Assembly: GCA_044229975.1 (NCBI GenBank)
Contig: JBGARZ010000002.1
Location: 128,001-192,000 of the forward strand
Length of the DNA: 64,000 nucleotides
Source of the DNA: Polyangiales bacterium
Lineage (GTDB): Bacteria > Myxococcota_A > Polyangia > Polyangiales > Ga0077539
Reading direction: 5' to 3'
The notes under the pieces are model-generated. The model did not search any database and had not been told where the DNA came from. It saw only the letters and a program-made list of their open reading frames with translations. A program made the translations under genes and the position numbers. Positions 10,234 through 34,865 of this stretch are shown piece after piece (the first letter of the stretch is position 1; the number at the start of each line of letters is the position of its first letter).

Positions 10234-11184
10234 CTACGGCACCAGCAGCACCTCGGCGGGCTCCACCACCACCGTGATTCCCTCGCGCAGGGGCATCACC
10301 TGCACCCGCGCCTCGGTCGCCACCCGGAGCGGTCCCTCGTCGGGCGCCGTCACCGTCGGAACGACCTGCGACGGCACCAGCTCCGCCAGCAGCTCGGGGT
10401 CGCCGCTGACCACCACCGCGACCACGGGCGGCCTCGCCTCCAGGCGTTGGGCGCCCCGCGGTGCGCCGCGGACGGTGACCGGGATGCGCTCGAAGCGACG
10501 CTCGCCGTGCAGCGCGGTGACGTCGAAGGTGACGCGCACCTGCGTGGGGCCATAGTCGATACCGTTGCGGGGCGCCTCCAGCAGCACGCGGCGTTCGTAG
10601 CGCCCGGGCGCGAGGCCCGAGGCGTCGACGGCCACGGTGTGCACCACCTCCTGCGCTTCGAGCGCGAGCGCCGGGCCGCGCGCACGCACGCGCTCGGGCT
10701 CGACGGTGATGGTCCCGATGCGGGTGCGGGGCGCGGTGCTGCCGACGACGCTCGCGCGCACGTCGAGCACGCGGGTGAGCAGCGTGTCCCAGCGGAGGTC
10801 GAGGCTCGACGGGCTGAAGCTGACGAAGTCCGCGCCGGCCGGGAGCTGCACGAGCGAGGGGTCGAGGTCGACGCGGCGTCGTCGGCCGTCGCGCAGGTCG
10901 ATCTCCACCGGGCCGATCTCGTCGCCGCGCAGCGGGGCGACCACGGACGGCGTCCCGCGAACGGTGAGGCGCACGCGCTCGGGCAGCGGCGTGACCAGCA
11001 GCGGGCCGCCCGGGACGGCGGCAGGGAGCCTCGCCGTGATGGGAACGTCCACGCTGCGCTGCACCGCTCCGGCGCCGCGAAACACCATGAAGAGTCCGAG
11101 CGAGATGGCGAGCGACGCGACCTTGTAGGGGAGGTTCTCCCGCACCAGGGCGAACAGGGCTCCGAGGCGCGAAGGGAGGTTCAC
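10234..11184 (-). CDS. cdaR: CdaR/YbbR-family regulator of diadenylate cyclase
   Basis: N-terminal TM (ENLPYKVASLAISL), repeated YbbR-like modules (PERVRLTVRG, VEPERVRARGP); lies between cdaA and glmM. Confidence 0.8.
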   Translation of the reverse strand: MNLPSRLGALFALVRENLPYKVASLAISLGLFMVFRGAGAVQRSVDVPITARLPAAVPGGPLLVTPLPERVRLTVRGTPSVVAPLRGDEIGPVEIDLRDGRRRRVDLDPSLVQLPAGADFVSFSPSSLDLRWDTLLTRVLDVRASVVGSTAPRTRIGTITVEPERVRARGPALALEAQEVVHTVAVDASGLAPGRYERRVLLEAPRNGIDYGPTQVRVTFDVTALHGERRFERIPVTVRGAPRGAQRLEARPPVVAVVVSGDPELLAELVPSQVVPTVTAPDEGPLRVATEARVQVMPLREGITVVVEPAEVLLVP

Positions 11185-12113
11185 GACTCGTCTCCGCTGG
11201 CGCGCGTCGGTGGTTCGGCGTCATCCGTCGGCACCGGCCGGACGCCCGAGCGCGGTGGTGGTGGCAGGCGAGACGACCGCCCGTCGCGATCGCCCTGCTC
11301 GGCCTCGCGCATGAGCGCCGCCACCTGTCGCTTGGAGTAGAGCACCCCGTAGAGCGCCTGGCGGGTGGTCTGCGCGTCGAGGCCCCGCACGATGTTGCCG
11401 TTGAAGCAGAGCGAGATCTCGCCGCGCTCTTCGCTCACGACGACCACGGCGGCGTCGGTCTCTTCGGAGATGCCCAGGGCCGCGCGGTGGCGGGTGCCGA
11501 GCTGCCGGTCGAGGGCGCCGCTGTTGGTGAGAGGGAGCACCGCGCCCGCCGCCGCGATGCGCCCGTTGCGGATGATGACCGCGCCGTCGTGCAGGGGGTT
11601 GTCCTGGCTCGGGAGGAAGAGCGTGAAGAGCAGCTCGGTGGAGATCTCCGCGTCGAGGTGGGTGCACTGCGTGACGAAGTCGTCGACGCTGGCCTCGCGC
11701 TCGAAGACGAAGAGGGCGCCCACGCGTCGCTGCGCGAGGTCTTCGGCCGCGGCGATGACCTCCTCCATCGCGGGCGCGTCGACGGGCTTGCGCCAGCGGG
11801 AGAGAAATGGCCGGTCGCCCACCCGCATCAGCGCGCGCCGGATGTCGGCCTGGAAGATCACCACCACGAACACCAGAAACGACGTGAGCGAACGGTCGAG
11901 CAGCGTGAAGGTCGTGGTGAGGTGGAGCCACTGCGAGATGGCGTAGACGACGGCGAGGAGCACCAGCCCCTGCCCCACCTGCGCCGCGCGCGTGCCGCGC
12001 ACGAGCAGCAGGATGCGGTAGATGGCGTAGGCCACCACCAGGATGTCGACGGCGTCGCGCAGCAGCTCCTGTGGCGGCCGACGAAGGATCACCCGCAGCC
12101 AGTCAGAGTGCAC
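11181..12113 (-). CDS. cdaA: Diadenylate cyclase CdaA/DacA
   Basis: 3 TM helices, PLHDGAVII and GTRHRAALG DAC motifs, VVVVSEERG. Confidence 0.93.
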   Translation of the reverse strand: MHSDWLRVILRRPPQELLRDAVDILVVAYAIYRILLLVRGTRAAQVGQGLVLLAVVYAISQWLHLTTTFTLLDRSLTSFLVFVVVIFQADIRRALMRVGDRPFLSRWRKPVDAPAMEEVIAAAEDLAQRRVGALFVFEREASVDDFVTQCTHLDAEISTELLFTLFLPSQDNPLHDGAVIIRNGRIAAAGAVLPLTNSGALDRQLGTRHRAALGISEETDAAVVVVSEERGEISLCFNGNIVRGLDAQTTRQALYGVLYSKRQVAALMREAEQGDRDGRSSRLPPPPRSGVRPVPTDDAEPPTRASGDES

Positions 12114-12990
12114 GGTCGCCCCCTCCCGCGAGGCGCAGCGCGTGGGCCACCCTCGCCGCCTGGGCCATCACGGCGACGTCGTGCACGCGCACCATCTCCG
12201 CCCCCTGGAGCACCGCGAGCGCGACGGATGCGGCCGTCCCTCCGACGCGCTCGGCCGCGGCGGCGGAGTCCTGCGCCCACCCCGGCGGGTGTGCCTCGTC
12301 GGAGACGAGGAAGCTCTTGCGAGATGGTCCCACGCAGAGAGGGTAGGTCAGCGATCGCAGCGCCGCGAGGTTTGCCAGGAGCGCCAACGAATGGGCGCCC
12401 GTCTTGGCGAAGCCGAGTCCCGGATCGAGCACCACGCGATGGGCCGCGACGCCCGCCGCGATGAGACGCTCGGCCGTCTGGGCGAGCTCGGCGCGCACGT
12501 CGGACACCACGTCACCGTAGCGGGCGAGTGAGCGCATGGTCGCAGGCGTCCCACGGGCGTGCATCGCGAGATACACGGCACCGTATTCCGCCGCGACCAC
12601 CCCGAGCGCCTCGGGGGCCTCGCCGGTGCCGACGTCGTTGAGGAGGGACGCACCCGCGGCGAGGGCCGAGCGCGCGACGGCGGCCTTGGTGGTGTCGATG
12701 GAGATGGGCGTCGGGAAGCGAGCTGTCAGCGCGTCGATGACGGGCACGACGCGCCCGAGCTCCTCCGCCTCGGAGACCACGGCGGCTCCGGGGCGGGTGC
12801 TCTCCCCGCCGACGTCGATGGCGTCTGCGCCTTCGGCAATCATCGCGGCGGCGCGGTCGACCGCGGCGTCGACCCGGACGAAGCGACCGCCGTCCGAGAA
12901 CGAGTCGGGCGTGACGTTGAGCACGCCCAGGACATAGGGTCGGGACCAATCCCAGGTGACGGTTCGGAGCTGGAGGGGGAGGCGCGGCAT
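12103..12990 (-). CDS. folP: Dihydropteroate synthase
   Basis: GVLNVTPDSFSDGG, GGESTRPG, DPGLGFAK, SRKSF, RVHDV. Confidence 0.95.
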   Translation of the reverse strand: MPRLPLQLRTVTWDWSRPYVLGVLNVTPDSFSDGGRFVRVDAAVDRAAAMIAEGADAIDVGGESTRPGAAVVSEAEELGRVVPVIDALTARFPTPISIDTTKAAVARSALAAGASLLNDVGTGEAPEALGVVAAEYGAVYLAMHARGTPATMRSLARYGDVVSDVRAELAQTAERLIAAGVAAHRVVLDPGLGFAKTGAHSLALLANLAALRSLTYPLCVGPSRKSFLVSDEAHPPGWAQDSAAAAERVGGTAASVALAVLQGAEMVRVHDVAVMAQAARVAHALRLAGGGDRAL

Positions 12991-13034
12991 ACAGAACTCG
13001 GTAAGCCGCGAGGGCGAGCGCGAACGGACGCCGA

Positions 13035-14981
<1,947 letters not shown>

Positions 14982-15067
14982 CTCTTCGAGAGTTTGCGCA
15001 GGTTACCTCGCAACCGTGCCAGCGCTAACCCCTCGCGCAGGATTTTTGCAGATTGGGGAGATCGGTC

Positions 15068-16063
15068 TCAGCCCCGTGCGACGCGTCGCCGGAGCAGCAC
15101 CCGACCCGAACGCCGGTCGAGCGTCACCGTCGCGCCGTGCAGCACCAGAGCCTCGGCGCGAGAGAGGTCGCGCGGGGTGAGCGCCGCGTGGGCGAGCGCG
15201 CGGGCGTCGTGCCGGAGGTGCACCGCATCGGCCGACGGGCACACCGCCCTCACCGCGGCCCGCGCGACCCATGGCCCGCGCAGCCCGCGGAGCGCCTCCA
15301 CGTCGAGCTCCAATGCCTCACCCACCGCGCCGCCTCGCACCAACGCTTCGGCGTCGTGCGCGAGCATCCGCTGCACCCGACGCGACTCCCGCCCGAGCTT
15401 CGCGAGCGCCGCCGACGAGCCGGGCGCGACGGCCCTCAACCGCGGCAGGATCATCGTCTCCAGCGCCGGGAGCAGCCGGTCGCGCGAGGGCTTCTGGTCG
15501 GGCGGGGGCAGCGGCACCTCGACGCCCAGCAGCGACGCGAGCGACGCGGCCTCGGAGCCCTCCAGGGTCAACAGCGGACGCACCACGCCTCCGCGCAGCT
15601 TCGGCGCGAGACCGCGGATGGAGGTCATGCCGCGCCCACGCAGCAGTTCGAGCAGCACCCGCGACGCGTCGTCGTCCCGCGTCGGCGCGAGGGCAATGCG
15701 GGTGTGCCCCTGGTCGGTCGCGAGCCGTCGCAGCTCGTCGATCACGCGCACCCGCCCGGCCGTCGCCGACGGTCGCACGCCGTGGAAGGTCAGCCCGAGC
15801 TGCCGCGCAAGGCGACCGAGGTCGGCCACCTGCTCGGCGTCGTCGGACTCCTCGTCGAGCCGACACTCCACCGCGGCGACCGCAACGTCCGCGAGGCCCA
15901 GCGCAGCTCGCGCGTGGATGAGAAGGCCCAGGAGACCGAGGCTCGACGCGTCGGCGCCGAGACCTACCAGTACGCGGTCGCCCGGCTGAAAGAGCCGCTG
16001 GCGCTGCGCGAACGCGACGGCCCTGCGCAGCACCTGCTCGACCCCCGAGGCGTGCTGACTCAC
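15068..16063 (-). CDS. TilS (tRNA-Ile lysidine synthetase)-like protein with degenerate catalytic motifs
   Basis: TilS scaffold (PGDRVLV, LLRGRG, VVRPLL) and canonical position upstream of ftsH, but the PP-loop SGGxDS reads GLGADASS. Confidence 0.75.
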   Translation of the reverse strand: MSQHASGVEQVLRRAVAFAQRQRLFQPGDRVLVGLGADASSLGLLGLLIHARAALGLADVAVAAVECRLDEESDDAEQVADLGRLARQLGLTFHGVRPSATAGRVRVIDELRRLATDQGHTRIALAPTRDDDASRVLLELLRGRGMTSIRGLAPKLRGGVVRPLLTLEGSEAASLASLLGVEVPLPPPDQKPSRDRLLPALETMILPRLRAVAPGSSAALAKLGRESRRVQRMLAHDAEALVRGGAVGEALELDVEALRGLRGPWVARAAVRAVCPSADAVHLRHDARALAHAALTPRDLSRAEALVLHGATVTLDRRSGRVLLRRRVARG

Positions 16064-16260
16064 AGGAGCTCGAACTCCTTGCAGAAGGTTCCGTCGCGCG
16101 ACCCTTCGCCCTCGAAGGCCGCGCGTCGGTGCATCGCGTTGGGGTAGCCGTTGGCGCAGCGCCCGCCCTCCGCCACGAAGAACACGCAGTCCTCGCAGGC
16201 GTGCCTCAGCACGAAGCGCTCACGCTCGGCGATGAACTCCCGATCGACGACGCTACGCAC
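16060..16260 (-). CDS. Small 4-Cys hypothetical protein (CxxC-x9-C...C)
   Basis: 66 aa ORF overlapping both neighbours; ACEDC, RC, FCKEF. Confidence 0.65.
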   Translation of the reverse strand: MRSVVDREFIAERERFVLRHACEDCVFFVAEGGRCANGYPNAMHRRAAFEGEGSRDGTFCKEFELL

Positions 16261-17503
16261 GCCCCGCTCCCTTCGTGGCCACGAGCGTCGCGACGACCTC
16301 CACCAGCGGCGTCTGTGGAAACATCTCGAAGGCCGCCAGGCGCTGCAACGTGTACTTCGCCGAGAGCGCCTGGAGGTCGCGACCGAGGTGCTCCGGGTCG
16401 CACGAGACGTAGACCACGCGCCGCACCGGTGCGCTCACCAGCACCGCGCACGCCTCGCGCGCGCCCGTCCGCGGCGGGTCGAGCACCACCACGTCGGCCT
16501 TCCACGGCCGCGTCCGCACCTCCACGGCCTCCTCGTGAACGCTGACGTTCGTGATGCCGCGGTTGGTCAGGTTGACGCGCAGCGCCTCCGTCGCGTCGCG
16601 GTCGGACTCCACCGCCGTCACCTTCGCGGCGCTCTTCGCGAGGCACACCGTGAGGTTGCCCGCGCCCGCGTACAGCTCGACCACCGAGCGACCCGCGGCC
16701 TGGGCTTCGCTGTCGACGTACGCCGCGAGCGTCGGGTTGAGCGAGCCGTTGGCCTGACCAAATCCCCCGATGCCCGCGCGCAACGGCAGTCCGTCGCCGC
16801 CCACCTGCACCGGGCACGGGTCTCCCTCGATGGCAGGCGCGCTCACACCCGGTGTCCACAGTGCGACCCCGGCGAAGCCCCGGGTCAACAACTGGCGACC
16901 GACCGCGTAGCCCCGCTCGTCGAGCGGTCGCTGCGGTCGCAGGCTCGCCACCGGCCGACCGCCTTCGCCGAGCGCGATGGCCGCCTCGCCGCGACCGCCC
17001 AGCGCCGCGATCGCCTCGCGCAACGCGGGCAACGCCGCCTCCAACGCGGGCACGAGCACCGGGCACGACGGGAGGTCGACGATGGTGCTGGAGCGACGTT
17101 CGAGGAAGCCCAGGAGCACGCGCGGACCCGACAGGGTCCAGTGCAGTCGGGCGCGGGTGCGGTAGCCGTACGGGGCGTCGCTCGCGACGTACGTGACGGG
17201 CGTCGTGCGGAGTGCGGGGGGGAGCGCGCGCTGGAGGCGTTCGAGGCGGGCGGCCTGCTGGGCCGACGGCGAAGCGTGCTGCCAGGTGCAGCCGCCGCAG
17301 CGACCGAACACCGCGCACGGCGCCTCGACGCGCGCGTCGGACGACTCTTCGCGGGCCACGGTCGCCCAGCCGTTGCCCTCGCGGCGGACGCGCCAGCGCT
17401 CACCGGGGAGCGTGTCTTCGAGGCGCACGACGGTGCCGTTGAGGCGGGCGATGCCCTCCCCCGACGCGGCGAGGGACTCGATGGTGACGACGGACTCCTT
17501 CAC
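16253..17503 (-). CDS. rlmD: 23S rRNA m5U methyltransferase RlmD/TrmA family
   Basis: TRAM-like N-terminus, CAVFGRCGGC Fe-S motif, GYRTRARL, ELYAGAG, LDPPRTG, YVSCDP, EMFPQT; GTG start overlapping upstream stop. Confidence 0.88.
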   Translation of the reverse strand: MKESVVTIESLAASGEGIARLNGTVVRLEDTLPGERWRVRREGNGWATVAREESSDARVEAPCAVFGRCGGCTWQHASPSAQQAARLERLQRALPPALRTTPVTYVASDAPYGYRTRARLHWTLSGPRVLLGFLERRSSTIVDLPSCPVLVPALEAALPALREAIAALGGRGEAAIALGEGGRPVASLRPQRPLDERGYAVGRQLLTRGFAGVALWTPGVSAPAIEGDPCPVQVGGDGLPLRAGIGGFGQANGSLNPTLAAYVDSEAQAAGRSVVELYAGAGNLTVCLAKSAAKVTAVESDRDATEALRVNLTNRGITNVSVHEEAVEVRTRPWKADVVVLDPPRTGAREACAVLVSAPVRRVVYVSCDPEHLGRDLQALSAKYTLQRLAAFEMFPQTPLVEVVATLVATKGAGRA

Positions 17504-18138
17504 TGGAACCGCTGCGCCGGCCGACCGCGCACGAAGTAGAAGCGGAACCACCCCTCCAGCTCGCCGACGCTGTCCGAGAGCACCCGCGGCTCGCGTGCGG
17601 CGGGGCCGGTCGGGGCGCGCGAGGGGTCGGTGTCGCGCACCTCGCGGGGGTCGCGCAGCGAGATCGAGAACTGGGTCACCTCGGTGAGGCGCTGCGTCGC
17701 GTCGGCGTTGGGGTCGCCGCGATAGATGGAGCTGAACACCACGTAGCCGTGCGTCGCTTCGAGGGCGACGGTGGGCGAGTAGGCGGTGAGCTCGCGGCGT
17801 CCGCACGTGTAGTTGGGGCGGAAGACCGCCTGCACCGGCGCGACACCGGGGAGGCCCACCGGGATGCGCTCGTTGAGGTGCGCCGCGACGTAGGCCGTGT
17901 CGTTGACGCGCCACACGAACTCGTCGCTGAACTCCGCGGTCTCGCCGCCCTGCGCCACGCGGATGATGAGCGTGCCGTCGTGGAAGTCGCCGCCGAAGAA
18001 CACCGGCTTCAGGTCGAACAGCTCCGTCGACACCCCGCACACCTCGAGGTGCAACGGTCCGCGAACATCACCGCTCCCCTCGCCCACGCTGCACCCCGCG
18101 AGGAGCACCAGACCCAGTCCTCGCCAACGACCGCTCAC
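17500..18138 (-). CDS. Hypothetical lipoprotein
   Basis: Lipobox LLAGC after a hydrophobic signal; coupled overlaps with both neighbours. Confidence 0.75.
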   Translation of the reverse strand: MSGRWRGLGLVLLAGCSVGEGSGDVRGPLHLEVCGVSTELFDLKPVFFGGDFHDGTLIIRVAQGGETAEFSDEFVWRVNDTAYVAAHLNERIPVGLPGVAPVQAVFRPNYTCGRRELTAYSPTVALEATHGYVVFSSIYRGDPNADATQRLTEVTQFSISLRDPREVRDTDPSRAPTGPAAREPRVLSDSVGELEGWFRFYFVRGRPAQRFQ

Positions 18139-19196
18139 GATGGAAGCTCCGTGATCCAGGCGCCACCGACGACGCGATCGCCCGCATAGAGCACCGCCGC
18201 CTGCCCGGGCGCAACCCCTCGCTGCGGCTCCGCGAATCGCAGCGTCGCCCGGCCCTCACCGAGGTCTTCCACCGTCGCCTCGACGCCCGTGTGCCGGTAA
18301 CGGATGCGCGCCCGCACCTGCGTCGGCCGGGTGTCGCTCAACCAGCGGAAACCCTCCAGGGCCGCGACGCTCGTGCGCGTCTCTTCGTCGTCGCCCACGA
18401 CGACGGCCGCCCGCTCGGGGACGATCTTCAGCACGTAGCGCGGGCTCCCGGCGGCGCCGATGCCCCGGCGCTGTCCCGGCGTGAAGGCGTGCACCCCGTC
18501 GTGCTGCCCCACCACCTCGCCGCGGAGTGTCTCGATGGGACCGGGGCGCGCCGCTCCGCCGCCGTGACGCTCGACGAAGCCTGCATACGGTTGACCTTCG
18601 AGGAAGCAAAGGTCGACCGAGTCCGGCTTCTGCGCGTTGGGCAGCCCCGCCTCCGCGGCGAGCGCCCTCACCGCGGGCTTCTCCAGCCCGCCGAGCGGGA
18701 GGTGCAGCCGTCGCAGCGCCTCGACCGGCGAAGCCCAGAGAAAGTACGACTGGTCCTTGCTGGCGTCGGCGGCGGCGCGGAGGTCGACGCCGTCACCATC
18801 GAGCGAGACCCGCGCGTAGTGCCCGGTGGCGATGGCGTCGGCCCCGAGGCGCGTGGCGATGTCCCACAACGGCCCGAGCTTCACCGACTCGTTGCAGCGC
18901 ACGCAGGGGCTCGGTGTGCGCCCTGCGGCATAGTCCTCGACGAAGCGGTCGACGACCTTCTCGCGAAACAGCGAGCGGCGGTCGAAGGTGTAGTGCGCCA
19001 CGCCGAGCAGCTCGCAGACCCGCGCGGCGTCGTACTGATCTTCAGGCGAGCAGCACCGACCGGCGTGCCCCTCGCGGACGTAGTCCCACAGGTGCAGGGT
19101 GACGCCGATGACCTCCCAGCCCTCGCGGTGCAGCACCGCCGCGGCCGCGGACGAGTCCACCCCGCCGCTCATTCCCACCACGATTCGCCGCGCCAC
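18135..19196 (-). CDS. mnmA: tRNA 2-thiouridine(34) synthase MnmA
   Basis: GMSGGVDS PP-loop, GRTPSPCVRCN, ATGHYAR, KDQSYFL, DSVDLCF, PGQAAVLY. Confidence 0.95.
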   Translation of the reverse strand: MARRIVVGMSGGVDSSAAAAVLHREGWEVIGVTLHLWDYVREGHAGRCCSPEDQYDAARVCELLGVAHYTFDRRSLFREKVVDRFVEDYAAGRTPSPCVRCNESVKLGPLWDIATRLGADAIATGHYARVSLDGDGVDLRAAADASKDQSYFLWASPVEALRRLHLPLGGLEKPAVRALAAEAGLPNAQKPDSVDLCFLEGQPYAGFVERHGGGAARPGPIETLRGEVVGQHDGVHAFTPGQRRGIGAAGSPRYVLKIVPERAAVVVGDDEETRTSVAALEGFRWLSDTRPTQVRARIRYRHTGVEATVEDLGEGRATLRFAEPQRGVAPGQAAVLYAGDRVVGGAWITELPS

Positions 19197-19210
19197 GAGT
19201 GCAGGTCCTC

Positions 19211-19426
19211 TCAGAACCCCAGGAAGGTCTGCGCGGCACCGTCGACCAGCGCGGACCACTGGCCGATGGTGAACACCGTCGCCACGACGACCAGCACCAT
19301 GCAGCCGTCGATGGCGAACACGGCCCAGCCCGGGGCGCAGGCGTCACACGGAGCAGGCGCGCGGGCGGGCGAGCGGTAGGGGCTCACCGCCACGGGCGCG
19401 CAGGTCGATGGGGTTGAATCGATCAT
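19211..19426 (-). CDS. Small hypothetical membrane protein
   Basis: 71 aa with SPYR motif and hydrophobic C-terminal helix; fills the gap between the epimerase and mnmA. Confidence 0.45.
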   Translation of the reverse strand: MIDSTPSTCAPVAVSPYRSPARAPAPCDACAPGWAVFAIDGCMVLVVVATVFTIGQWSALVDGAAQTFLGF

Positions 19427-19475
19427 GCCCGCCGATGATGCCGCACCACGGCGCCCGGCGCGAGCACGAGCGTCA

Positions 19476-20408
19476 TCAGGCCGACGCGAGGCACGCGCGC
19501 AGGCCCTCTTCGAGCGAGACCTTCGGCGCAAATCCGAGGCCCTCCACGATGCGGCCGATGGAGGCGAGGCTGTGCCGGATGTCTCCCGCGCGCTCGGGGG
19601 CGTGCACGATCTTCGACCGGCTCCCGGTCACGGTCACGATGGACCGCGCGAGGTCGTTGATGGTGATGCGCCCGCCCTGGGCGACGTTGAAGACCTCTCC
19701 CTTGCCCGCGCGATCGGAGGTCGCCGCGAGCACGTTGGCGGCCACCACGTCGCCCACGAAGACGAAGTCGCGGGTCTGCTCGCCGTCGCCGAAGATGCTG
19801 ATGTCCACCCCGCGCTGGGCGCGCTCGATGAAGATCGGAACGGCCGCCGCGTAGGCGCCCTTCGGGTCCTGCCGCGGGCCGAAGACGTTGAAGTACCGCA
19901 GGCTGACGGTGGGCACGCCGTGGGCCTCGGCATACATCTTCAGGTAAAATTCCCCGTCCAGCTTGGTGATGCCGTAGGGGGACTTCGGGGCCGGGGTCAT
20001 GTCCTCGGTCTTCGGGCTGCGCGGGTCGTCGCCGTACACCGCCGCGCTGCTGGAGAACACCACGCGCGACACGCCCGCGGCCTTCGCCGCGTCGAGGACG
20101 TTGAGCGTCCCGTGGATGTTGATGTCCACGCACTCCAGCGGTCGCTCCATGGACTCGGGGACGCTCACCTGCGCCGCGAGGTGGTGCACCACCGAGCAAC
20201 CGTCCATCGCCCGCTTCACCGTCGCGGCATCGGTGATGCTGCCCTCGATGAACGTGAGCCCGCCGTCGTCGGGGATGCGCGCGACGTTGTCCCGCTTGCC
20301 CGTCCGCAGGCTGTCGAGCACCACCACGTGCGCCCCGCGCCGACGCCACTCCGTCGCCACGTGATGCCCGATGAACCCCGCCCCTCCGGTGACCAGAACC
20401 TTCTTCAT
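19476..20408 (-). CDS. NAD-dependent epimerase/dehydratase (UDP-sugar 4-epimerase-like SDR)
   Basis: TGGAGFIG, SSSAAVYG, YGITK (YxxxK), LRYFNVFGPRQDP. Confidence 0.92.
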   Translation of the reverse strand: MKKVLVTGGAGFIGHHVATEWRRRGAHVVVLDSLRTGKRDNVARIPDDGGLTFIEGSITDAATVKRAMDGCSVVHHLAAQVSVPESMERPLECVDINIHGTLNVLDAAKAAGVSRVVFSSSAAVYGDDPRSPKTEDMTPAPKSPYGITKLDGEFYLKMYAEAHGVPTVSLRYFNVFGPRQDPKGAYAAAVPIFIERAQRGVDISIFGDGEQTRDFVFVGDVVAANVLAATSDRAGKGEVFNVAQGGRITINDLARSIVTVTGSRSKIVHAPERAGDIRHSLASIGRIVEGLGFAPKVSLEEGLRACLASA

Positions 20409-20487
20409 GCCGCGCATTCCGCCCTCCGTCGCGCGCCGGGTCAAGGCTTCCGCGCGGGAAGTCACCGCGACCGGTAGAGTTCGCGCC

Positions 20488-21221
20488 ATGAACGGCTCGA
20501 CCCTGGTCATCGGCGCCGGCACCAACCTCGGCGGGCGCTGGTCCATCCTCCGCGCCGCGCGTGACCTCGTCGCCTCGCGCTTCGGCACCTCCGACCTCCG
20601 CGTCGCGCCCGTGTGGGAGACCGCGCCGCTCGGTCCACCGCAGCCCGACTACCTCAACACCGCGTTTGCGCTCCCCTTCGATCGCACCCTCGGCGAAGCG
20701 CTGGAGATCTGCCGCTCCATCGAGCGCGACCTCGGCCGCGAACGCCGCGATCGCTGGGGGCCGCGCACCCTCGACCTCGACCTGCTCTGGCACGCCTCGC
20801 AGCGATCGAACACCGACACCCTCACCGTCCCGCACCCCGGGCTGCGACAGCGCACCTTCGCGCTCGACCCGCTGTTGGCGCTCGTCCCCGACGCGGTCGA
20901 TCCGACGGAAGGCGCGCCGCTCGCGGATGTGCGAGCGCGGCTCCCCGCTTCGATGCCGGGAAGCGATCTCGCGAAGGGGCCCGCGACACGCGATTTCGCC
21001 GATGAGCTCGCCTTCGCGGCCGAAGCCGGGATCGCCGAGGGCGTCCTGCGAGGCCGACCAGGAACGTTCGAGCTGTTGGTGGAAGGGCCGACCGATCCCG
21101 CTCACTTTGCCAGGGCGGTGCGGGCACACCTGCGCGGTCGCCCGGTGGCTCTTGTACGGGTCGCGGTGCTGGAGCACACGCCCGAGCGCACCCGCGCCGT
21201 GCTGACACTCGTCACGCGGCG

Positions 21222-21225
<4 letters not shown>
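20488..21225 (+). CDS. folK: HPPK (FolK) with ~90 aa C-terminal extension
   Basis: IGAGTNLG, PQPDYLN, RWGPRTLDLDLL, VPHP motifs. Confidence 0.9.
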
Positions 21226-22187
<962 letters not shown>

Positions 22188-22189
22188 CG

Positions 22190-22849
22190 ATGCCCGTCTT
22201 CGTGGCCGTGGTCGGCGTCGGCGGTCTCGGCTGCCCCGCGGCGCTCGCGCTCGCCGAGGCGGGCGTCGCGCTGCGGCTCATCGACGAGGACACCGTCGAC
22301 CGCTCCAACCTCCATCGCCAGGTGCTCTTCACGGAGGCCGATGTCGGTCGACGGAAGGTCGATGCGGCGCGCGATGCGCTCGCGAAGATGGCGCCCGGGA
22401 TGGTGGTGGAGACGCGCCCCGAGCACCTCGCGCCGGAGAGCGCGGAGTCCCTGCTGCGCGGCGCGGCGGTGATCGTCGAGGGGAGCGACAACCTCCCGAC
22501 GAAGTTTTTGACGGCGGACGTGGCGCGGGCGTTGGGGGCGCCGGTGGTGCACGGCGCGTGCGTCGGCTGGGGCGGCACGGTGCTGCCCGTGAAGTGGGGC
22601 GACGGCGCCTGCTACCGCTGCGTCTTCGAGGACGTGCCCGACGAGGAGGCGACGACCTGCGCCATCGCCGGGGTCTACGGGCCGATCACCTCCGTCATCG
22701 GCGCGATGATGGCGCGCGACGCCTTGAGGCTGCTGCACGGTGACCGCAGCACCGTCGGCAGCCTTGCGCGATACGACGGCTGGAACCAGACGTTCCGCTC
22801 GTCGTGCTTCGCGCGGCGCGGCGATTGTCCGCTGTGCGGTCGCGGCTGA
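22190..22849 (+). CDS. ThiF/MoeB/HesA family E1-like adenylyltransferase lacking the N-terminal Arg-finger segment
   Basis: GVGGLG, DTVDRSNLHRQ, SDN, CYRC and CPLC Zn sites, TTCAIAGV; begins directly at the first beta strand. Confidence 0.9.
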   Translation: MPVFVAVVGVGGLGCPAALALAEAGVALRLIDEDTVDRSNLHRQVLFTEADVGRRKVDAARDALAKMAPGMVVETRPEHLAPESAESLLRGAAVIVEGSDNLPTKFLTADVARALGAPVVHGACVGWGGTVLPVKWGDGACYRCVFEDVPDEEATTCAIAGVYGPITSVIGAMMARDALRLLHGDRSTVGSLARYDGWNQTFRSSCFARRGDCPLCGRG

Positions 22850-22873
22850 GGTTCCAGTGGACCCAGCGACGGT

Positions 22874-22887
22874 TTCAGTTTACTGAA
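22874..22887. promoter_or_regulatory. AT-rich palindrome TTCAGT-TT-ACTGAA upstream of the sulfur-carrier gene
   Basis: 6-bp inverted repeat in an intergenic AT-rich patch; AGGAGG RBS at 22908-22913. Confidence 0.35.
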
Positions 22888-22919
22888 TGCGCGAACAATC
22901 GCTCCCAAGGAGGCTCTCG

Positions 22920-23192
22920 ATGGCGATCACGGTGCGGGTTCCGACGCAGCTTCGGACCCTGACGGCGGGCAAGGAAGAGGTCAGTGGCACGGGCGCGACG
23001 GTGGGCGAGCTCATCGACCAGCTCGAAGGCGCGCACCCCGGCCTCAAGGATCGGCTGCTCGATGCCAAGGGCATCCGCCGCTTCGTGAACCTCTACCTCA
23101 ACGAAGAGGACGTCCGCTTCCTCGAAGGGCTCGCCACTCCGCTGAAGGACAACGACACCCTCACCATCGTCCCGGCGATCGCGGGCGGATGA
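22920..23192 (+). CDS. MoaD/ThiS/CysO family ubiquitin-like sulfur carrier
   Basis: VRVPTQLR, RRFVNLYLNEEDVRFL, C-terminal PAIAGG; strong RBS. Confidence 0.92.
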   Translation: MAITVRVPTQLRTLTAGKEEVSGTGATVGELIDQLEGAHPGLKDRLLDAKGIRRFVNLYLNEEDVRFLEGLATPLKDNDTLTIVPAIAGG

Positions 23193-23491
23193 GCGACCGG
23201 CCGCTCGACCACGCGCGCTACGGGCGGCAGATCGCGCTGCCCGAACTCGGCGTGGCAGGTCAGCGGTCGCTGGCAGAGGTCGCGGTGCGCTTCCATCCCG
23301 ACAATCCCCTCGCGCGAGAGGCGCACGAGCGTGCTGGTGGCACCGTCTCGGACTATGCCTCCGTCGTCATCGAGCTGCCGGTGGGCGGACGGGGTGTTGC
23401 CGCGTGGGCGAGCGTCGAGGCGGCGCGTCGGGTGCTGGGTCAGCCTGCGAAGGCGCTGCCGCCAGGGCTGGCGGCGCGGTTGGGTGAGTGA
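23189..23491 (+). CDS. Minimal ThiF/MoeB-like protein (N-terminal RYxRQ segment plus remnant helices)
   Basis: ARYGRQIALPELGVAGQRSL matches the MoeB/ThiF N-terminus; no GxGxxG; 4-nt overlaps with both neighbours. Confidence 0.75.
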   Translation: MSDRPLDHARYGRQIALPELGVAGQRSLAEVAVRFHPDNPLAREAHERAGGTVSDYASVVIELPVGGRGVAAWASVEAARRVLGQPAKALPPGLAARLGE

Positions 23492-24429
23492 TGCTGCGAC
23501 CGAAGCGATTGGACTCCATCCTCGACGCAGTGGGCAACACGCCGCTGCTGCGACTGCGAACGCTAGAGCGCGACACACCGGGCGTGGAGATCTACGCCAA
23601 GCTGGAGTTTCAAAACCCCGGCGGCTCGGTGAAGGACCGCGCGGCGCGGCAGATCTTCACCGACGCGCTCCGCCGCGGTGACCTCACCCGCGATCGCGTG
23701 CTCATCGACTCGACCTCGGGCAACACGGGCGTCGCCTACTCGCTCGTGGGCGCGGCGCTCGGCTACCGCGTCGCGCTGGTGATGCCGTCCAACGTGTCGC
23801 AGGCGCGCAAGGACATCACCCGCGCCTTCGGCACCGAGATCATCTACTCCGACCCGCTGGAGGGCAGCGACGGCGCGATTCGCCTTGCCCGCAAGCTCGT
23901 CGCCGAGCGGCCCGACCACTACTACTACCCCGACCAGTACTCCAACGAGAGCAACCCGCTGGGGCACTACCTCACGACGGGGCCGGAGATATTGGCCGAC
24001 GTGGGCGACCGCATCACGCACTTCGTCACGGGCCTCGGCACTACCGGCACCATGATGGGCACCACGCGCCGCTTGAAGGAGCACCACCGCCCCATTCGCT
24101 GCGTGGCGGTGCAGCCCGCCGACGCGCTGCACGGCCTGGAGGGCCTCAAGCATCTGCCGAGCTCGCTGGTGCCGCCCATCTACAGCGACGCCGTGCCCGA
24201 CGAGACCATGTGGATCAACACCGAGGACGGCTGGGACATGACCGACCGGCTCTGGGAGCAGGAGTCGGTTCACGTCGGTCACTCGGCCGGGGCCAATGTG
24301 TTTGCCGCGTACACCATCGCGCGTGACCTCGCTTCGCGGGGCGAGCCCGGCTGCGTCGTGACGATCCTTTGTGACCGCGGCGACCGATACTTCCTCCCGA
24401 TGAAGTGGGAGCGTCTCTACACCTGGTGA
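23488..24429 (+). CDS. cysM: Cysteine synthase B / CysM-type PLP enzyme
   Basis: NPGGSVKDR, STSGNTG, GLGTTGT, LHGLEGLK, DRGDRY; context with sulfur carrier and JAB protease. Confidence 0.85.
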   Translation: MMLRPKRLDSILDAVGNTPLLRLRTLERDTPGVEIYAKLEFQNPGGSVKDRAARQIFTDALRRGDLTRDRVLIDSTSGNTGVAYSLVGAALGYRVALVMPSNVSQARKDITRAFGTEIIYSDPLEGSDGAIRLARKLVAERPDHYYYPDQYSNESNPLGHYLTTGPEILADVGDRITHFVTGLGTTGTMMGTTRRLKEHHRPIRCVAVQPADALHGLEGLKHLPSSLVPPIYSDAVPDETMWINTEDGWDMTDRLWEQESVHVGHSAGANVFAAYTIARDLASRGEPGCVVTILCDRGDRYFLPMKWERLYTW

Positions 24430-24443
24430 GAGGGAGTCCGACG

Positions 24444-24953
24444 ATGCGTACCCGACCGTGGCTACAGGGCAATCTCGTGATTCCGCAGGACGTCCTCGAC
24501 GACGTCGACGCGCACGCCCGCGAGGCGTACCCCGGCGAGTCGTGCGGGCTGCTCCTCGGCCCCGCGGGTGACCCGCGCGTCATCACGTCGGGGCGGCGCG
24601 TGCCCAACCTCGCCGACCGCTATCACAAGCTCGACCCCGAGACGTACCCGCGCACCTCGAAGAACGCCTACATCATCGACGGCATGCTCATGCAGCGCGC
24701 CCTCGCGGACGGCGACGCGGGCGGCGTTCCGGTGAAGGTGATCTATCACTCGCACTGCGACGTCGGCGCGTACTTCTCCACCGAGGACAAGATCGTCGCG
24801 TCCCCGGAGGGAACGCCCGTGCTGCCCGTCGTGTATCTCGTCACGAGCGTGCGCGAGGGCGGCGTGGTCGACGACCACAAGCTCTTCATCTTCAAGGATG
24901 GCGACTGGGACGAGGCGCCGTACACCATCGGGCCGCGTCCCTCGATGGTGTAG
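24444..24953 (+). CDS. JAB/MPN (M67) metallopeptidase, Mec-like
   Basis: YPGESCGLLLG and YHSH...FSTED JAMM motif. Confidence 0.9.
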   Translation: MRTRPWLQGNLVIPQDVLDDVDAHAREAYPGESCGLLLGPAGDPRVITSGRRVPNLADRYHKLDPETYPRTSKNAYIIDGMLMQRALADGDAGGVPVKVIYHSHCDVGAYFSTEDKIVASPEGTPVLPVVYLVTSVREGGVVDDHKLFIFKDGDWDEAPYTIGPRPSMV

Positions 24954-31637: not shown

Positions 31638-34600
31638 TCAGCTCTTCGCGTTGCGCGCGAGGTAGGTGCCCCAGTCGAGGGGCTTGAGGTCGCTCACCTT
31701 GTACTTGTGCATGGCCTCCACCGCGGCGCGCGCGAGCTGGAGGTTGGTGAGCAGCGGCACGTTGACGTCCACCGCGCGGCGGCGGATGCGGTAGCCGTCG
31801 GGCAGGCCCTGGTTGTCGTACGAGCGCGGGATGTTGATCACCAGGTCGATGTGCCCGCTGTTGAGCAGCGACACCGCGCTCGGCGACTTCTCGTCGCTGT
31901 CCTTGTAGGCCACCTCGCAGGCGATCCCCTGCTCCTTGAGCACGTCCGCGGTGCCGGGCGTCGCATAGATGGTGAGTCCCATCTCGGTGAGCCACTGCGC
32001 CTCGCGCTCGAAGCGGTACTTGTCCGCCACGGGGCCGAGCGAGAGCAGCACGCCGCGCTTCGGGACCTTGAAGCCCGTCGCGATGAGCGCCTTGAGCAGC
32101 GCCTCGGAGAGGTCGTCGCCGAGGCAACCGACCTCACCCGTGGACGCCATCTCGACGCCCAGCGTCGGGTCGGCGCCGGCGAGGCGCGAGAAGGAGAACT
32201 GCGCCGCCTTCACCGCGACGTAGTCGAGGTCGAGCGCTTCGACGGAGGTCGGCGTGGCGACCCCGAGCATGCGGCGCGCGGCCTCGCGGATGAAGTTGGT
32301 TCCGGTCACCTTCGACACGAAGGGGAAGGAGCGCGACGCCCGCAGGTTGCACTCGATGACCTTCACCACGTTGTCCTTCGCGAGGAACTGCATGTTGAAG
32401 GGCCCGGTGATCTGGAGGGCCCGCGCCACGTCGCGCGCGATGCGCTTGATGCGGCGGATGGTCTCCACGTAGAGCTTCTGCGGCGGAAGCACGAGCGTCG
32501 CGTCCCCGGAGTGGACGCCGGCGTTTTCGACGTGCTCGCTGATGGCCGAGAGCACCACCTCGCCGCGGTCGGCGACGGCGTCGATCTCGATCTCCTTGGC
32601 GTGCGTCTCGAACTTGGTGATGACCACCGGGTGCTCCGGCGACACGGCCGTCGCGCGGTGCAGGTAGTTACGCAGGTGGTGCTGCTCGTGGGCGACGGTC
32701 ATCGCCGCGCCGGAGAGCACGTACGACGGGCGCACCAGCAGGGGGAAGCCACCGAGCTCTTCGGTGAGCTTCGTGAGGTGCTCATCGCTCACGTCCGTCG
32801 TGGTGGTCCACTTCGGCTGGTCGATCTGGAGCTGGTCGAGGAGGTCACCGAACTTCTGGCGGTCTTCCGCGCGGTCGACCGACTCGGGGCTGGTGCCGAG
32901 CACCCGCACGCCCGCTTTGTGGAGCTTGAGCGCGAGGTTGTTGGAGACCTGTCCGCCCATGGAGACGATGACCCCGTAGGGCTGCTCTCGCTCGTAGAGG
33001 TCGAGCACCGTCTCCAGGCTGATCTCGTCGAAGACCAGCTTGTCGCAGACGTCGTAGTCGGTGGAGACCGTCTCCGGGTTGTAGTTGAGCAGGATGGTCT
33101 CGTAGCCGAGCTCCTGCGCCGCGCGCACGGTGTTCACGCTGCACCAGTCGAACTCCACGCTCGACCCGATGCGGTACGCGCCCGACCCGAGCACGATGAC
33201 CTTCTTGCGCCACGAGGCGGCCACGTCGTCGGCCGACGCGTGGTAGGTCATGTAGAGGTAGTTGGTCTCCGCGGGGTACTCGGCGGCCAACGTGTCGATC
33301 TGGCAGAGGTGCGGACGGATGCCGTGTCGCAGGCGCTCGGAGCGAACCTCGGGCTCGCTGTTCTTGCGGATGCGCGCGATGGCCTTGTCCGAGAAGCCTC
33401 GCTGCTTGGCCTCGCGGAGTAGCGGCGCGGGGACGGTTCCGGTGCCCTCCTTCAACGACCGCCGGGTGCGGACGATGGACTCGATCTCGTTGAGGAACCA
33501 ACGGTCGATGCCCGAGAGCCGGTTGATCTCGTCGATGGTCATCCCCTGCTCCATCGCGCGGGCGACGGCGAGGATGCGGCGGGGCGACGGGTTGCGAATC
33601 TCGTTGGCGAGGTCTTCACCCGTGAAGGCGTCGGGGTCGAGCCCGTCGACGCCGATCTCGATCATCCGCAGCGCCTTCTGGAGCACCTCGGGGAAGCTCC
33701 GGCCGATGGCCATCACCTCGCCCACGCTCTTCATCTCGCTGCCGATGCGCGTGTCGACCTGGTTGAACTTCTGGAGGTCCCACCGCGGAAACTTGCAGAC
33801 GATGTAGTCGAGCGCCGGCTCGAAGAACGAGCTGGTGCGCCGCGTGATGGCGTTGGGCAGGTCGGGCAGCGTGTAGCCGAGGGCGATCTTCGCGGCGACG
33901 TACGCGAGCGGATATCCAGTGGCCTTCGACGCGAGCGCGCTCGATCGGCTGAGCCGCGCGTTGACCTCGATGACCCGGTAGTCGTTGCTCTTGGGGTCGA
34001 GCGCGTACTGGATGTTGCACTCACCCACCACGCCGAGGTGGCGGATGGTGCGGATCGCGATGCTGCGGAGGAGCTGGTACTCCTCGTCGTTGAGCGTCTG
34101 CGAAGGACACACCACGATCGACTCCCCGGTGTGGATGCCGAGGGGATCGAGGTTCTCCATGTTGCAGACGGTGATGCAGTTGTCGCGCGCGTCGCGGACG
34201 ACCTCGTACTCGATCTCCTTCCACCCGCGCAGCGACTCTTCGACGAGCACCTGCGCCGTGCCGCCGCCGAAGGCCCGCAAGAGCGCCGCCTCCAGCTGCT
34301 GATCGGTCTCGCAGATGGCCGACCCCTTGCCGCCGAGCGAGTACGCTGCGCGCAGGATCACCGGCAGCCCGAGCATCTTCACCGCCGCGCGCACCTCGTC
34401 GGCGCTGTTGCAGGCGGCCGAGCGCGCGGTCTTCACGCCGATCTCGTCGAGGCGCTGTTTGAAGCGCAGGCGGTCTTCGGTGTCGCGCACCGTCTCGACG
34501 GGGGTGCCGAGCACGCGCACGCCGTACTTGGCGAGGATGCCGGACTCGTCGAGGGCGACGCCGCAGTTGAGCGCGGTCTGCCCACCGAAGGAGATGGTGA

Positions 34601-34865
34601 TCGCGTCGACCTCTTCGCGGACGATGACCTCCTCGACGAAGTGTGGGTCGACCGGGAGGAAGTAGACCTTGTCGGCCATCTCCTCGCTGGTCTGGATGGT
34701 GGCGATGTTGGGGTTGACCAGGACGGTCTGGATCCCCTCTTCGCGGATGGCCTTGATGGCCTGCGAGCCGGAGTAGTCGAACTCGCCGGCCTCGCCGATC
34801 TTGAGGGCGCCGGACCCGAGGATGAGGACGCGGCGGGGCTTCTTGGGGAGGTACTGTCCGAACAT
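31638..34865 (-). CDS. carB: Carbamoyl-phosphate synthase large subunit
   Basis: Duplicated ATP-grasp halves, GEFDYSGSQA, HTGESIV, NPETVSTDYD, C-terminal MGS domain. Confidence 0.97.
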   Translation of the reverse strand: MFGQYLPKKPRRVLILGSGALKIGEAGEFDYSGSQAIKAIREEGIQTVLVNPNIATIQTSEEMADKVYFLPVDPHFVEEVIVREEVDAITISFGGQTALNCGVALDESGILAKYGVRVLGTPVETVRDTEDRLRFKQRLDEIGVKTARSAACNSADEVRAAVKMLGLPVILRAAYSLGGKGSAICETDQQLEAALLRAFGGGTAQVLVEESLRGWKEIEYEVVRDARDNCITVCNMENLDPLGIHTGESIVVCPSQTLNDEEYQLLRSIAIRTIRHLGVVGECNIQYALDPKSNDYRVIEVNARLSRSSALASKATGYPLAYVAAKIALGYTLPDLPNAITRRTSSFFEPALDYIVCKFPRWDLQKFNQVDTRIGSEMKSVGEVMAIGRSFPEVLQKALRMIEIGVDGLDPDAFTGEDLANEIRNPSPRRILAVARAMEQGMTIDEINRLSGIDRWFLNEIESIVRTRRSLKEGTGTVPAPLLREAKQRGFSDKAIARIRKNSEPEVRSERLRHGIRPHLCQIDTLAAEYPAETNYLYMTYHASADDVAASWRKKVIVLGSGAYRIGSSVEFDWCSVNTVRAAQELGYETILLNYNPETVSTDYDVCDKLVFDEISLETVLDLYEREQPYGVIVSMGGQVSNNLALKLHKAGVRVLGTSPESVDRAEDRQKFGDLLDQLQIDQPKWTTTTDVSDEHLTKLTEELGGFPLLVRPSYVLSGAAMTVAHEQHHLRNYLHRATAVSPEHPVVITKFETHAKEIEIDAVADRGEVVLSAISEHVENAGVHSGDATLVLPPQKLYVETIRRIKRIARDVARALQITGPFNMQFLAKDNVVKVIECNLRASRSFPFVSKVTGTNFIREAARRMLGVATPTSVEALDLDYVAVKAAQFSFSRLAGADPTLGVEMASTGEVGCLGDDLSEALLKALIATGFKVPKRGVLLSLGPVADKYRFEREAQWLTEMGLTIYATPGTADVLKEQGIACEVAYKDSDEKSPSAVSLLNSGHIDLVINIPRSYDNQGLPDGYRIRRRAVDVNVPLLTNLQLARAAVEAMHKYKVSDLKPLDWGTYLARNAKS

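Follow-up and report, generated by a model that had tools for sequence, protein, structure and literature searches.

A predicted two-gene active/inactive E1 of the ThiF/MoeB family in Polyangiales, probably linked to ThiS

The window analysed here, a stretch of 64,000 nucleotides from a Polyangiales genome (contig JBGARZ010000002.1, positions 128,001 to 192,000 of the forward strand), carries two genes of the ThiF/MoeB family of ubiquitin-activating-type enzymes (E1s): one encodes an E1 devoid of the N-terminal arm that bears the arginine finger (hereafter the N-less E1), and the other, on the far side of a sulfur carrier gene, a 100-residue protein that possesses such an arm (hereafter the mini-E1, or mini). 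Conservation, co-deletion, complementary loss of residues, natural fusions and the model of one fusion together make it highly probable that the two proteins form a heterodimer. The fuller description, in which E1 and mini make up an asymmetric 1:1 enzyme whose single active site probably adenylates ThiS on the way to thiamine, is proposed with a confidence slightly above even. A first-pass annotation of the locus had already suggested a bacterial active/inactive heterodimeric E1 parallel to those of eukaryotes; the pairing is well supported by the evidence below, whereas its novelty is narrower than implied, since BilD is a bacterial single-chain precedent that joins an inactive adenylation domain (IAD) to an active one (AAD) (bioRxiv 2023.09.26.559546), and what appears to be new is the metabolic, two-gene version.

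The N-less E1 and the mini-E1

The N-less E1, 219 amino acids long and with MPVFVAVVGVGGLG as its N-terminus, starts directly at the first strand of the fold, in accordance with the first-pass annotation. The Pfam ThiF match (PF00899, 198.6 bits, residues 5-214) enters the profile at position 23 of 238, the match to E. coli ThiF begins at ThiF residue 31, and on the NCBIfam model NF006444 the protein begins at position 150, with the mini covering positions 125-150 (E 0.037). An arm hidden upstream in another frame was considered and ruled out, since the motif R[YFH]xR[QH] is absent from all six frames of the 990 upstream bases (21201-22190) and the stop codon of cysK lies 2 nucleotides before the E1 ATG. 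The catalytic set consists of the G9-G14 loop, D32, N40/R43, K56, D100 and C157, together with the zinc cysteines C141/C144/C213/C216; G9, G11, G12, D32, N40, R43, K56 and D100, as well as C141, C144 and C213, are each kept in 85/85 N-less orthologues, the crossover-loop C157 in 83 and C216 in 74. The best solved relatives of this subunit are E. coli ThiF-ThiS and MoeB-MoaD (PDB 1zud, 1zfn, 1jw9; E 1e-39 and 3e-33), to which it aligns over residues 5-217 with no CYS/SCCH insertion.

The mini contains ARYGRQIALPELGVAGQ, LAREAHERAGG and GVAAWASVEAARRVLG, and the pattern R[YFH]xR[QH]xxLx[ED]xGxxGQ has only two matches in the 20.05 million six-frame residues of the 10-Mb genome, namely the mini and a full-length MoeB-type E1 with an N-terminal extension (C38:282137-283501, minus strand; C38 is the contig of the window), which we take to be rhodanese-like in its N-terminal part. 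In profile-profile comparison (HHalign) with 44 full-length E1s, the N-terminal half of the mini aligned to the arm, strand 1 and helix B with a probability of 98.5, its C-terminal helix by itself matched the 'QATEAIK' helix weakly (E 0.0023, probability 12), and longer relatives of the mini aligned end to end (probability 99.4). Based on the alignment of the N-terminal half and on the end-to-end match of the long relatives, the mini is best described as a second E1 copy from which the nucleotide-binding middle was deleted: what is left is the arginine arm, strand 1, helix B and the C-terminal dimer helix. The claim that the small open reading frame combines the arm segment with remnants of the dimer helices and has no nucleotide-binding loop thus holds, the NLxRQ motif and a Gly loop after strand 1 both being found in 0/96 minis (eight loose Gly-pattern matches sit at residues 53-111). 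The finger position (Arg13) is occupied by R in 93 and by K in 3 of the 96 minis, and Arg10 is kept in 82/96.

A model built from the 96 sequences (predicted local distance difference test, pLDDT, 94.4; predicted template modelling score, pTM, 0.85) displays two N-terminal helices, a strand, a helix, short strands, a long helix and a tail. A Foldseek search with this model placed ThiF, Uba4 and MoeB in the top rows, with a best E of 0.047 and none at or below 0.001, and serves as a lead only; the ESM Atlas matches were Myxococcota clusters without a name, in one of which 10% of the members carry ThiF. At E 0.01, 62/96 minis match the MoeB model NF006444. Lengths range from 89 to 156 residues in the alignment, minis outside the order reach about 125-210 residues and keep 'YLAAAGVG' and 'LNPD', and in the representative search some clusters of 176-214 residues retain Cys pairs at their end. 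The ratio of nonsynonymous to synonymous substitution rates (dN/dS) of the mini lies at 0.14-0.60 and below 1 in 21/21 pairs from seven genomes of the genus (0.14-0.34 for the E1), which we read as purifying selection. One RNA run contained 6% of the sampled words; its contigs come from relatives and are uninformative on expression in this genome.

The residues linked to the arm show complementary losses. In the 44 full-length E1s the helix B Tyr is present in 39, the Asn of 'LNP' in 44 and the Glu of 'EAIK' in 43, and all three are mostly lost in the 85 N-less E1s; among the minis the helix B Tyr is found in 62/96 and the Glu in 65/96, and an LNP-like motif in 30/36 rows of the long-mini alignment. 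We infer that Tyr, Asn and Glu would hold the arm in cis and be needed only on the chain that bears it.

A number of variants of the two proteins were also recorded. In family f36 (L223, L226, L227, L229, L231, L234, L236, L238, L245, L250, L254, L287) the mini makes up the N-terminal portion of a 300-380-residue protein that continues into a JAMM-like peptidase, and in P0055, a 177-residue protein, the Gly-Gly of the carrier runs straight into the mini; the latter is either a real carrier-mini fusion that a JAMM peptidase could cleave or an artefact of assembly or gene calling. In genus g45, which is devoid of minis (L274, L275, L276), three of four N-less E1s have an Arg in place of the Asn that follows the Mg-binding Asp, possibly a replacement positive charge in cis. 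The N-less E1 P0196 is extended by a TusA-like domain (PF01206), and those of L169, L173, L174 and L188 presumably carry a similar extension, as recognised by motif; such extensions suggest that TusA rather than a rhodanese may be the sulfur relay.

Conservation and co-deletion

Co-occurrence of truncated E1s and minis across genomes had been set beforehand as a check, and the mini proved to be conserved across Polyangia and other Myxococcota, with an N-less E1 adjacent wherever the locus is complete. Of the conditions set to refute the pairing, lack of conservation and lack of co-occurrence were examined, and neither applied. Mini matches were found in 26/30 genomes of the same family. In all 28 same-family loci examined (L029 and L030, weak matches in which tblastn found neither an E1 nor a mini, were dropped) the neighbouring upstream E1 is devoid of the arm, and in ten of them a stop codon in frame, no more than 22 codons from the Gly loop, leaves no room for one. 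Sixty-six loci of other families in the order were selected for their long matches to the mini profile; 65 contain a mini, of which 62 have an N-less E1 upstream and three are cut by an edge; of 20 further loci, 17 have both genes (14 of them outside the order) and three are full-length E1s. The loci L134, L180, L181 and L185 were dropped as N-termini of full-length E1s, the regular-expression flags on L082 and L182 were spurious, arising from an overlapping upstream frame, and a tally of 245/251 was not used, as it mixes minis with the N-termini of full-length E1s; it also takes in G129, an unpublished genome that underlies none of the claims made here.

For the reverse test, E1s of 80 genomes outside the order served as the starting point, with 70 of 97 matches read. 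Forty-five of the 70 have the arm and no mini nearby; the 25 arm-less ones comprise 16 with a separate mini (14 clear, 2 weak), six single-chain fusions and three with no mini nearby, one of which (G269) belongs to a genome that has a mini elsewhere. Within the order, 80 genomes were hand-picked, rich in apparent absences and mostly incomplete bins: 56 have an N-less E1, and of these 50 have a mini and one is cut. A mini without an N-less E1 occurs only at contig edges (G159, G214, G222) and never on an intact stretch. When both genes are missing the carrier gene stays behind: of 15 carrier loci from genomes without the pair, 12 read cysK-carrier-cysM-JAMM with nothing between the genes. The carrier gene, flanked elsewhere by the two, is kept, and their joint loss from either side of it suggests that E1 and mini require one another, not the carrier. 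In L300 (G215) and L292 (G066) the match to the cysM-like gene is broken in two, owing to a frameshift or an assembly error.

Natural fusions and phylogeny

In six genomes from two families the mini and the N-less E1 follow each other, in this order, in one chain of 341-396 residues (Table 1). About 20 more protein clusters have a fusion-like length and N-terminal similarity; 18 of these were aligned, 17 in the mini-E1 order and one as E1-TusA-mini (TusA by PF01206). A model of the L206 fusion (pLDDT 89.4, pTM 0.90) aligned over 215-224 residues with single MoeB/ThiF chains, over 311-314 residues with BilD (Z 28.6-28.8, root-mean-square deviation, rmsd, 2.9-3.2, identity 16-17%) and over about 305-318 residues with Uba1/Uba6 (Z about 27, rmsd 2.5-3.1; for Uba1, Z 27.7 over 311 residues, rmsd 2.7). 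The superposition on BilD, Uba1 and Uba6 runs from model residue 6 onward through both adenylation domains, and the mini part therefore occupies the place of the inactive domain in the model. The register of Arg15 of the fusion against BilD Arg9 and Uba1 Arg22 agrees with where the aligned ranges end in 8tz0 and 4ii2, disagrees with 8tyz, and was not used.

In a FastTree phylogeny the N-less E1s lie on one side of a branch with a support of 91, except for the fusions L190 and L208, which fall among full-length E1s; fusion or duplication may accordingly have happened twice. The N-less E1s that have no mini are nested in the N-less group at no fewer than three places in the tree.

Proposed mechanism

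We hypothesize that a MoeB/ThiF gene was duplicated, that the arm and the residues holding it in cis disappeared from one copy, and that the other decayed stepwise to a cap for the dimer face. The mini would cover this face and lay its arm over the ATP site of the partner, as the second monomer does in ThiF, placing Arg13 on the gamma-phosphate of ATP; the E1 would then adenylate the Gly-Gly end of ThiS for thiocarboxylate formation. In ThiF, Arg11 is indeed supplied by the other monomer (PMC12596934). The strict need of the E1 for the mini is uncertain: the arginine finger is reported to be non-essential in MoeB and ThiF (PMC13139853), and seven genomes with an N-less E1 had no mini found, and the mini may hence be a structural partner or booster, whose arginine would raise rather than enable activity. 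In this scheme the CysO-like carrier and MoaD would fall to the rhodanese-MoeB of the genome.

ThiS as the probable substrate

Phylogenetic profiling points to ThiS as the main substrate of the pair, an assignment that we consider probable. In the 80 order genomes the pair (N-less E1 and/or mini) is present in 58/67 thiG-positive and in 1/13 thiG-negative genomes, to be compared with 45/60 and 14/20 for the presence and absence of the carrier, 40/52 and 19/28 for cysM, and 48/60 and 11/20 for moaE; conversely, 58 of the 59 genomes with the pair have thiG. Outside the order thiG is found in 25/25 genomes with an N-less E1 versus 35/55 others. The pair follows thiG rather than the neighbouring carrier or cysM, which makes ThiS the likelier substrate; the adjacent carrier is probably not the main one. 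Genome reduction as the cause of the link to thiG is weakened, as the thiG-negative genomes keep the carrier in 12/13 and cysM in 11/13 cases, and the pair persists in the 11 moaE-negative genomes counted above. The 12 genomes without thiG and without the pair span nine families, and 11 of them keep the carrier.

In the genome of the window thiS-thiG lie about 120 kb from the locus on the same contig (C38, about 271600-273500, plus strand), followed by an open reading frame that we take to be thiE-like, and no thiF or other E1 was found in the 6.7 kb read around them. The genome encodes three ThiS-family proteins, namely ThiS at C38:271692-271880, the carrier of the locus and a third on C11, and two E1s of the sulfur-carrier type; a weak E1-family match at C36, about 136046-136402, presumably resembles TcdA.

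Alternative readings

Several points, some of which favour one of the alternatives below, weigh against a heterodimer acting on ThiS. The E1 scores 174.8 bits on TIGR02356 (ThiF), below the cut-off of 275.25, the missing arm itself lowering the score; the highest dN/dS values of the mini (0.35-0.60) occur in pairs that involve the window's own copy; and L206 is a distant relative, the model of which may echo solved pseudo-dimers seen by AlphaFold. As to the substrate, in most loci E1 and mini belong to a cysK-carrier-cysM-JAMM operon and are not beside thiS, the pair is missing from 9/67 thiG-positive order genomes (in one of the nine, G088, a full-length E1 stands beside thiG), G104 (91% complete) has the pair with no thiG match found, and the profiled genomes are related and hand-picked, so that the counts overstate independence. 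As to the partnership, five of the 55 evaluable order genomes (G071, G118, G126, G137, G144), and G433 and G472 outside the order as judged by the long-mini profile, have an N-less E1 with no mini found, all seven having thiG, and the reported dispensability of the finger in MoeB and ThiF bears on the same question.

The alternative that survives best, although unlikely, keeps the heterodimer and assigns to it as main substrate the CysO-like carrier encoded between both genes, for cysteine synthesis, or several carriers equally. The order E1-carrier-mini, flanked by cysK, cysM and JAMM, recurs through the order, the start of the mini overlaps the stop of the carrier, and E1s with more than one substrate exist, as mycobacterial MoeZR serves both CysO and MoaD (PMC3227635). 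On this reading, however, one would not expect the pair to be missing from 12 of the 13 thiG-negative genomes when 12 of the same 13 keep the carrier, nor 11 genomes to retain the N-less E1 (ten of them with the mini) without a carrier or cysM match, all 11 with thiG.

Next in rank, and likewise doubtful, is the possibility that the N-less E1 functions independently of the mini, either as a homodimer or in partnership with the full-length rhodanese-MoeB, in which case the mini would be an accessory stabiliser or regulator that binds the E1 or competes for the dimer face. The seven mini-less genomes, placed at three or more positions inside the N-less group, agree with it, as does yeast Tcd1, which is needed mainly for the stability of Tcd2 (PMC13139853). 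Against it stand the basic finger position in every one of the 96 minis, the permanent fusions, which fix a 1:1 ratio, the confinement of solitary minis to the three contig edges, and the SAE1 R21A substitution, which abolishes adenylation by the SUMO E1 (cited in PMC6681703). That the mini completes the E1 by an arginine in trans, as first proposed, is thus supported by the invariably basic residue and qualified by the mini-less genomes and the dispensable finger of MoeB/ThiF. A decaying pseudogene left by duplication, or a chance reading frame, which the loss of all catalytic motifs, the variable length and the absence of a Pfam match at E 0.01 in 93/96 minis might suggest, is extremely improbable and largely refuted by conservation, given open frames in many families, the dN/dS below 1 in every pair, the confident fold, the fusions and the co-deletion with the E1.

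Comparison with known systems

The pair shares with E. coli ThiF-ThiS and MoeB-MoaD the catalytic residues, the equivalent of Cys184/187 and the zinc site, and the arginine finger of those enzymes comes from the other subunit (PMC12596934), as is predicted for the pair; unlike the pair, they are symmetric homodimers with two sites and an arm on each chain, whereas here arm and core are on separate genes and the arm chain has about 100 residues. The closest bacterial parallel is BilD of the Type II BilABCD antiviral system (PDB 8tyz, 8tz0), in which an inactive and an active adenylation domain are combined and the inactive one supplies Arg9; according to the preprint the remaining E1-like proteins known from bacteria are homodimeric (bioRxiv 2023.09.26.559546). 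BilD consists of a single chain into which a CYS domain is inserted, has a partner of the ubiquitin-conjugating type (E2) and conjugates proteins with a Ubl (ubiquitin-like protein) (bioRxiv 2023.09.26.559546), while the present system, set among genes of sulfur metabolism, is usually encoded by two genes and lacks a CYS insertion and, at the locus, an E2. In SAE1/SAE2 and NAE1/UBA3 (two chains) and in Uba1/Uba6 (one chain) there is, as predicted for the pair, a single active site with an N-terminal Arg from the inactive domain (PMC6681703, PMC12355090), and two-gene and fused forms occur in both the eukaryotic E1s and the myxobacterial pair, which differs from the former in having no FCCH, SCCH or UFD domains, no sign at the locus of a cascade of E2 and ubiquitin ligase (E3), and a far smaller inactive subunit. 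An independent origin of the pair and the eukaryotic E1s is likely. The dead domain is homologous to the active one and has a conserved N-terminal R/K in all 96 sequences, as in E1s of the IAD/AAD type; the pair would work like these enzymes and yet is not a member of the canonical E1s, as it has neither the CYS insertion nor an E2 in the locus.

Yeast Tcd1-Tcd2 is similarly a heterodimer of the ThiF fold in which an inactive paralogue provides a non-essential arginine finger and stabilises the active one, but it is eukaryotic, has two full-length subunits and acts on t6A of tRNA, not on a protein carrier (PMC13139853). The gene set resembles the mycobacterial CysO-CysM-Mec-MoeZR system and operon type 4c of Iyer et al. 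2006, in which a carrier, a cysteine synthase, a JAB peptidase and an E1-like enzyme stand together, although the E1 of the mycobacterial pathway is a full-length rhodanese fusion and the accessible part of that paper mentions no N-less E1 or mini partner (PMC1779556). No two-gene active/inactive bacterial ThiF/MoeB was found in the portions of the literature searched, which included few subscription papers.

The usual view derives canonical E1s from homodimeric MoeB/ThiF through duplication and inactivation of one copy, and intermediates are scarce. The family described here displays such steps side by side: loss of the arm from one copy, reduction of the other to a small cap, disappearance of this cap from some lineages and joining of both parts in a single chain. 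Whether Myxococcota, starting from a duplicated ThiF/MoeB, evolved in vitamin B1 metabolism, independently of eukaryotes and of BilD, the whole range of canonical E1 architectures, with an obligate two-gene heterodimer, inactive subunits whose size falls from about 200 to about 90 residues and fusions in the Uba1 order, is in our judgement evenly balanced; if so, the 100-residue mini would be close to a minimal inactive adenylation domain and the family a living model of a homodimeric MoeB becoming an IAD-AAD E1. Both proteins are small and presumably soluble, which allows direct tests of what an inactive domain minimally needs and of when the arginine finger becomes essential. An unannotated Myxococcota protein family thereby gains a putative function, and a candidate emerges for the thiF missing beside thiS-thiG.

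Gene context

The features of the locus and the natural fusions are compiled in Table 1. The mini ATG overlaps the carrier stop and the mini stop overlaps the start of the CysM-like gene; folK (Pfam HPPK) lies directly upstream of cysK, on the same strand as the genes from cysK to JAMM. A Gly-Gly carrier, a second cysteine synthase and a JAMM peptidase are grouped as in the CysO pathway, with the CysM-like gene scoring below the TIGR01138 cut-off. The operon E1 has no rhodanese domain, and Pfam/NCBIfam scans of the locus found no E2 among the operon genes, a genome-wide E2 search not having been made.

Table 1. Coordinates of the genes and residues discussed; positions are those of the window, except for the fusions, which are given by locus
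Feature	Position	Strand	Basis
cysK, cysteine synthase A (start codon uncertain)	21222..22187	+	TIGR01139 360.8 bits, cut-off 350.95
N-terminally truncated ThiF/MoeB-family adenylyltransferase, 219 residues, predicted catalytic (AAD-like) subunit	22190..22849	+	Pfam/NCBIfam matches, residue conservation in 85 orthologues
ThiS/MoaD-family (CysO-like) sulfur carrier, Gly-Gly end, between both E1 genes	22920..23192	+	Pfam PF02597 E 1.9e-18
Mini-E1, putative degenerate second adenylation-domain copy (IAD-like), 100 residues	23189..23491	+	profile and model comparison
Arg13 codon of the mini, equivalent to ThiF Arg11 / MoeB Arg14 (arginine finger)	23225..23227	+	alignment to E. coli ThiF N-terminus
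Second pyridoxal phosphate-dependent cysteine synthase (CysM-like)	23488..24429	+	best match TIGR01138, 324 bits, below the cut-off of 394
JAMM/JAB peptidase (Mec-like)	24444..24953	+	Pfam PF14464 E 7.3e-15
Single-chain mini-E1 fusions (Uba1/BilD domain order)	L190:1504-2661, L200:1195-2226, L206:1441-2502, L208:1498-2685, L219:2438-3484, L225:2477-3499		

In the wider neighbourhood (11181-21225 and 31638-34865) the window has open reading frames that we take to resemble folP, ftsH, tilS, mnmA and carB, and a Pfam match to an NAD-dependent epimerase was recorded in the same regions.

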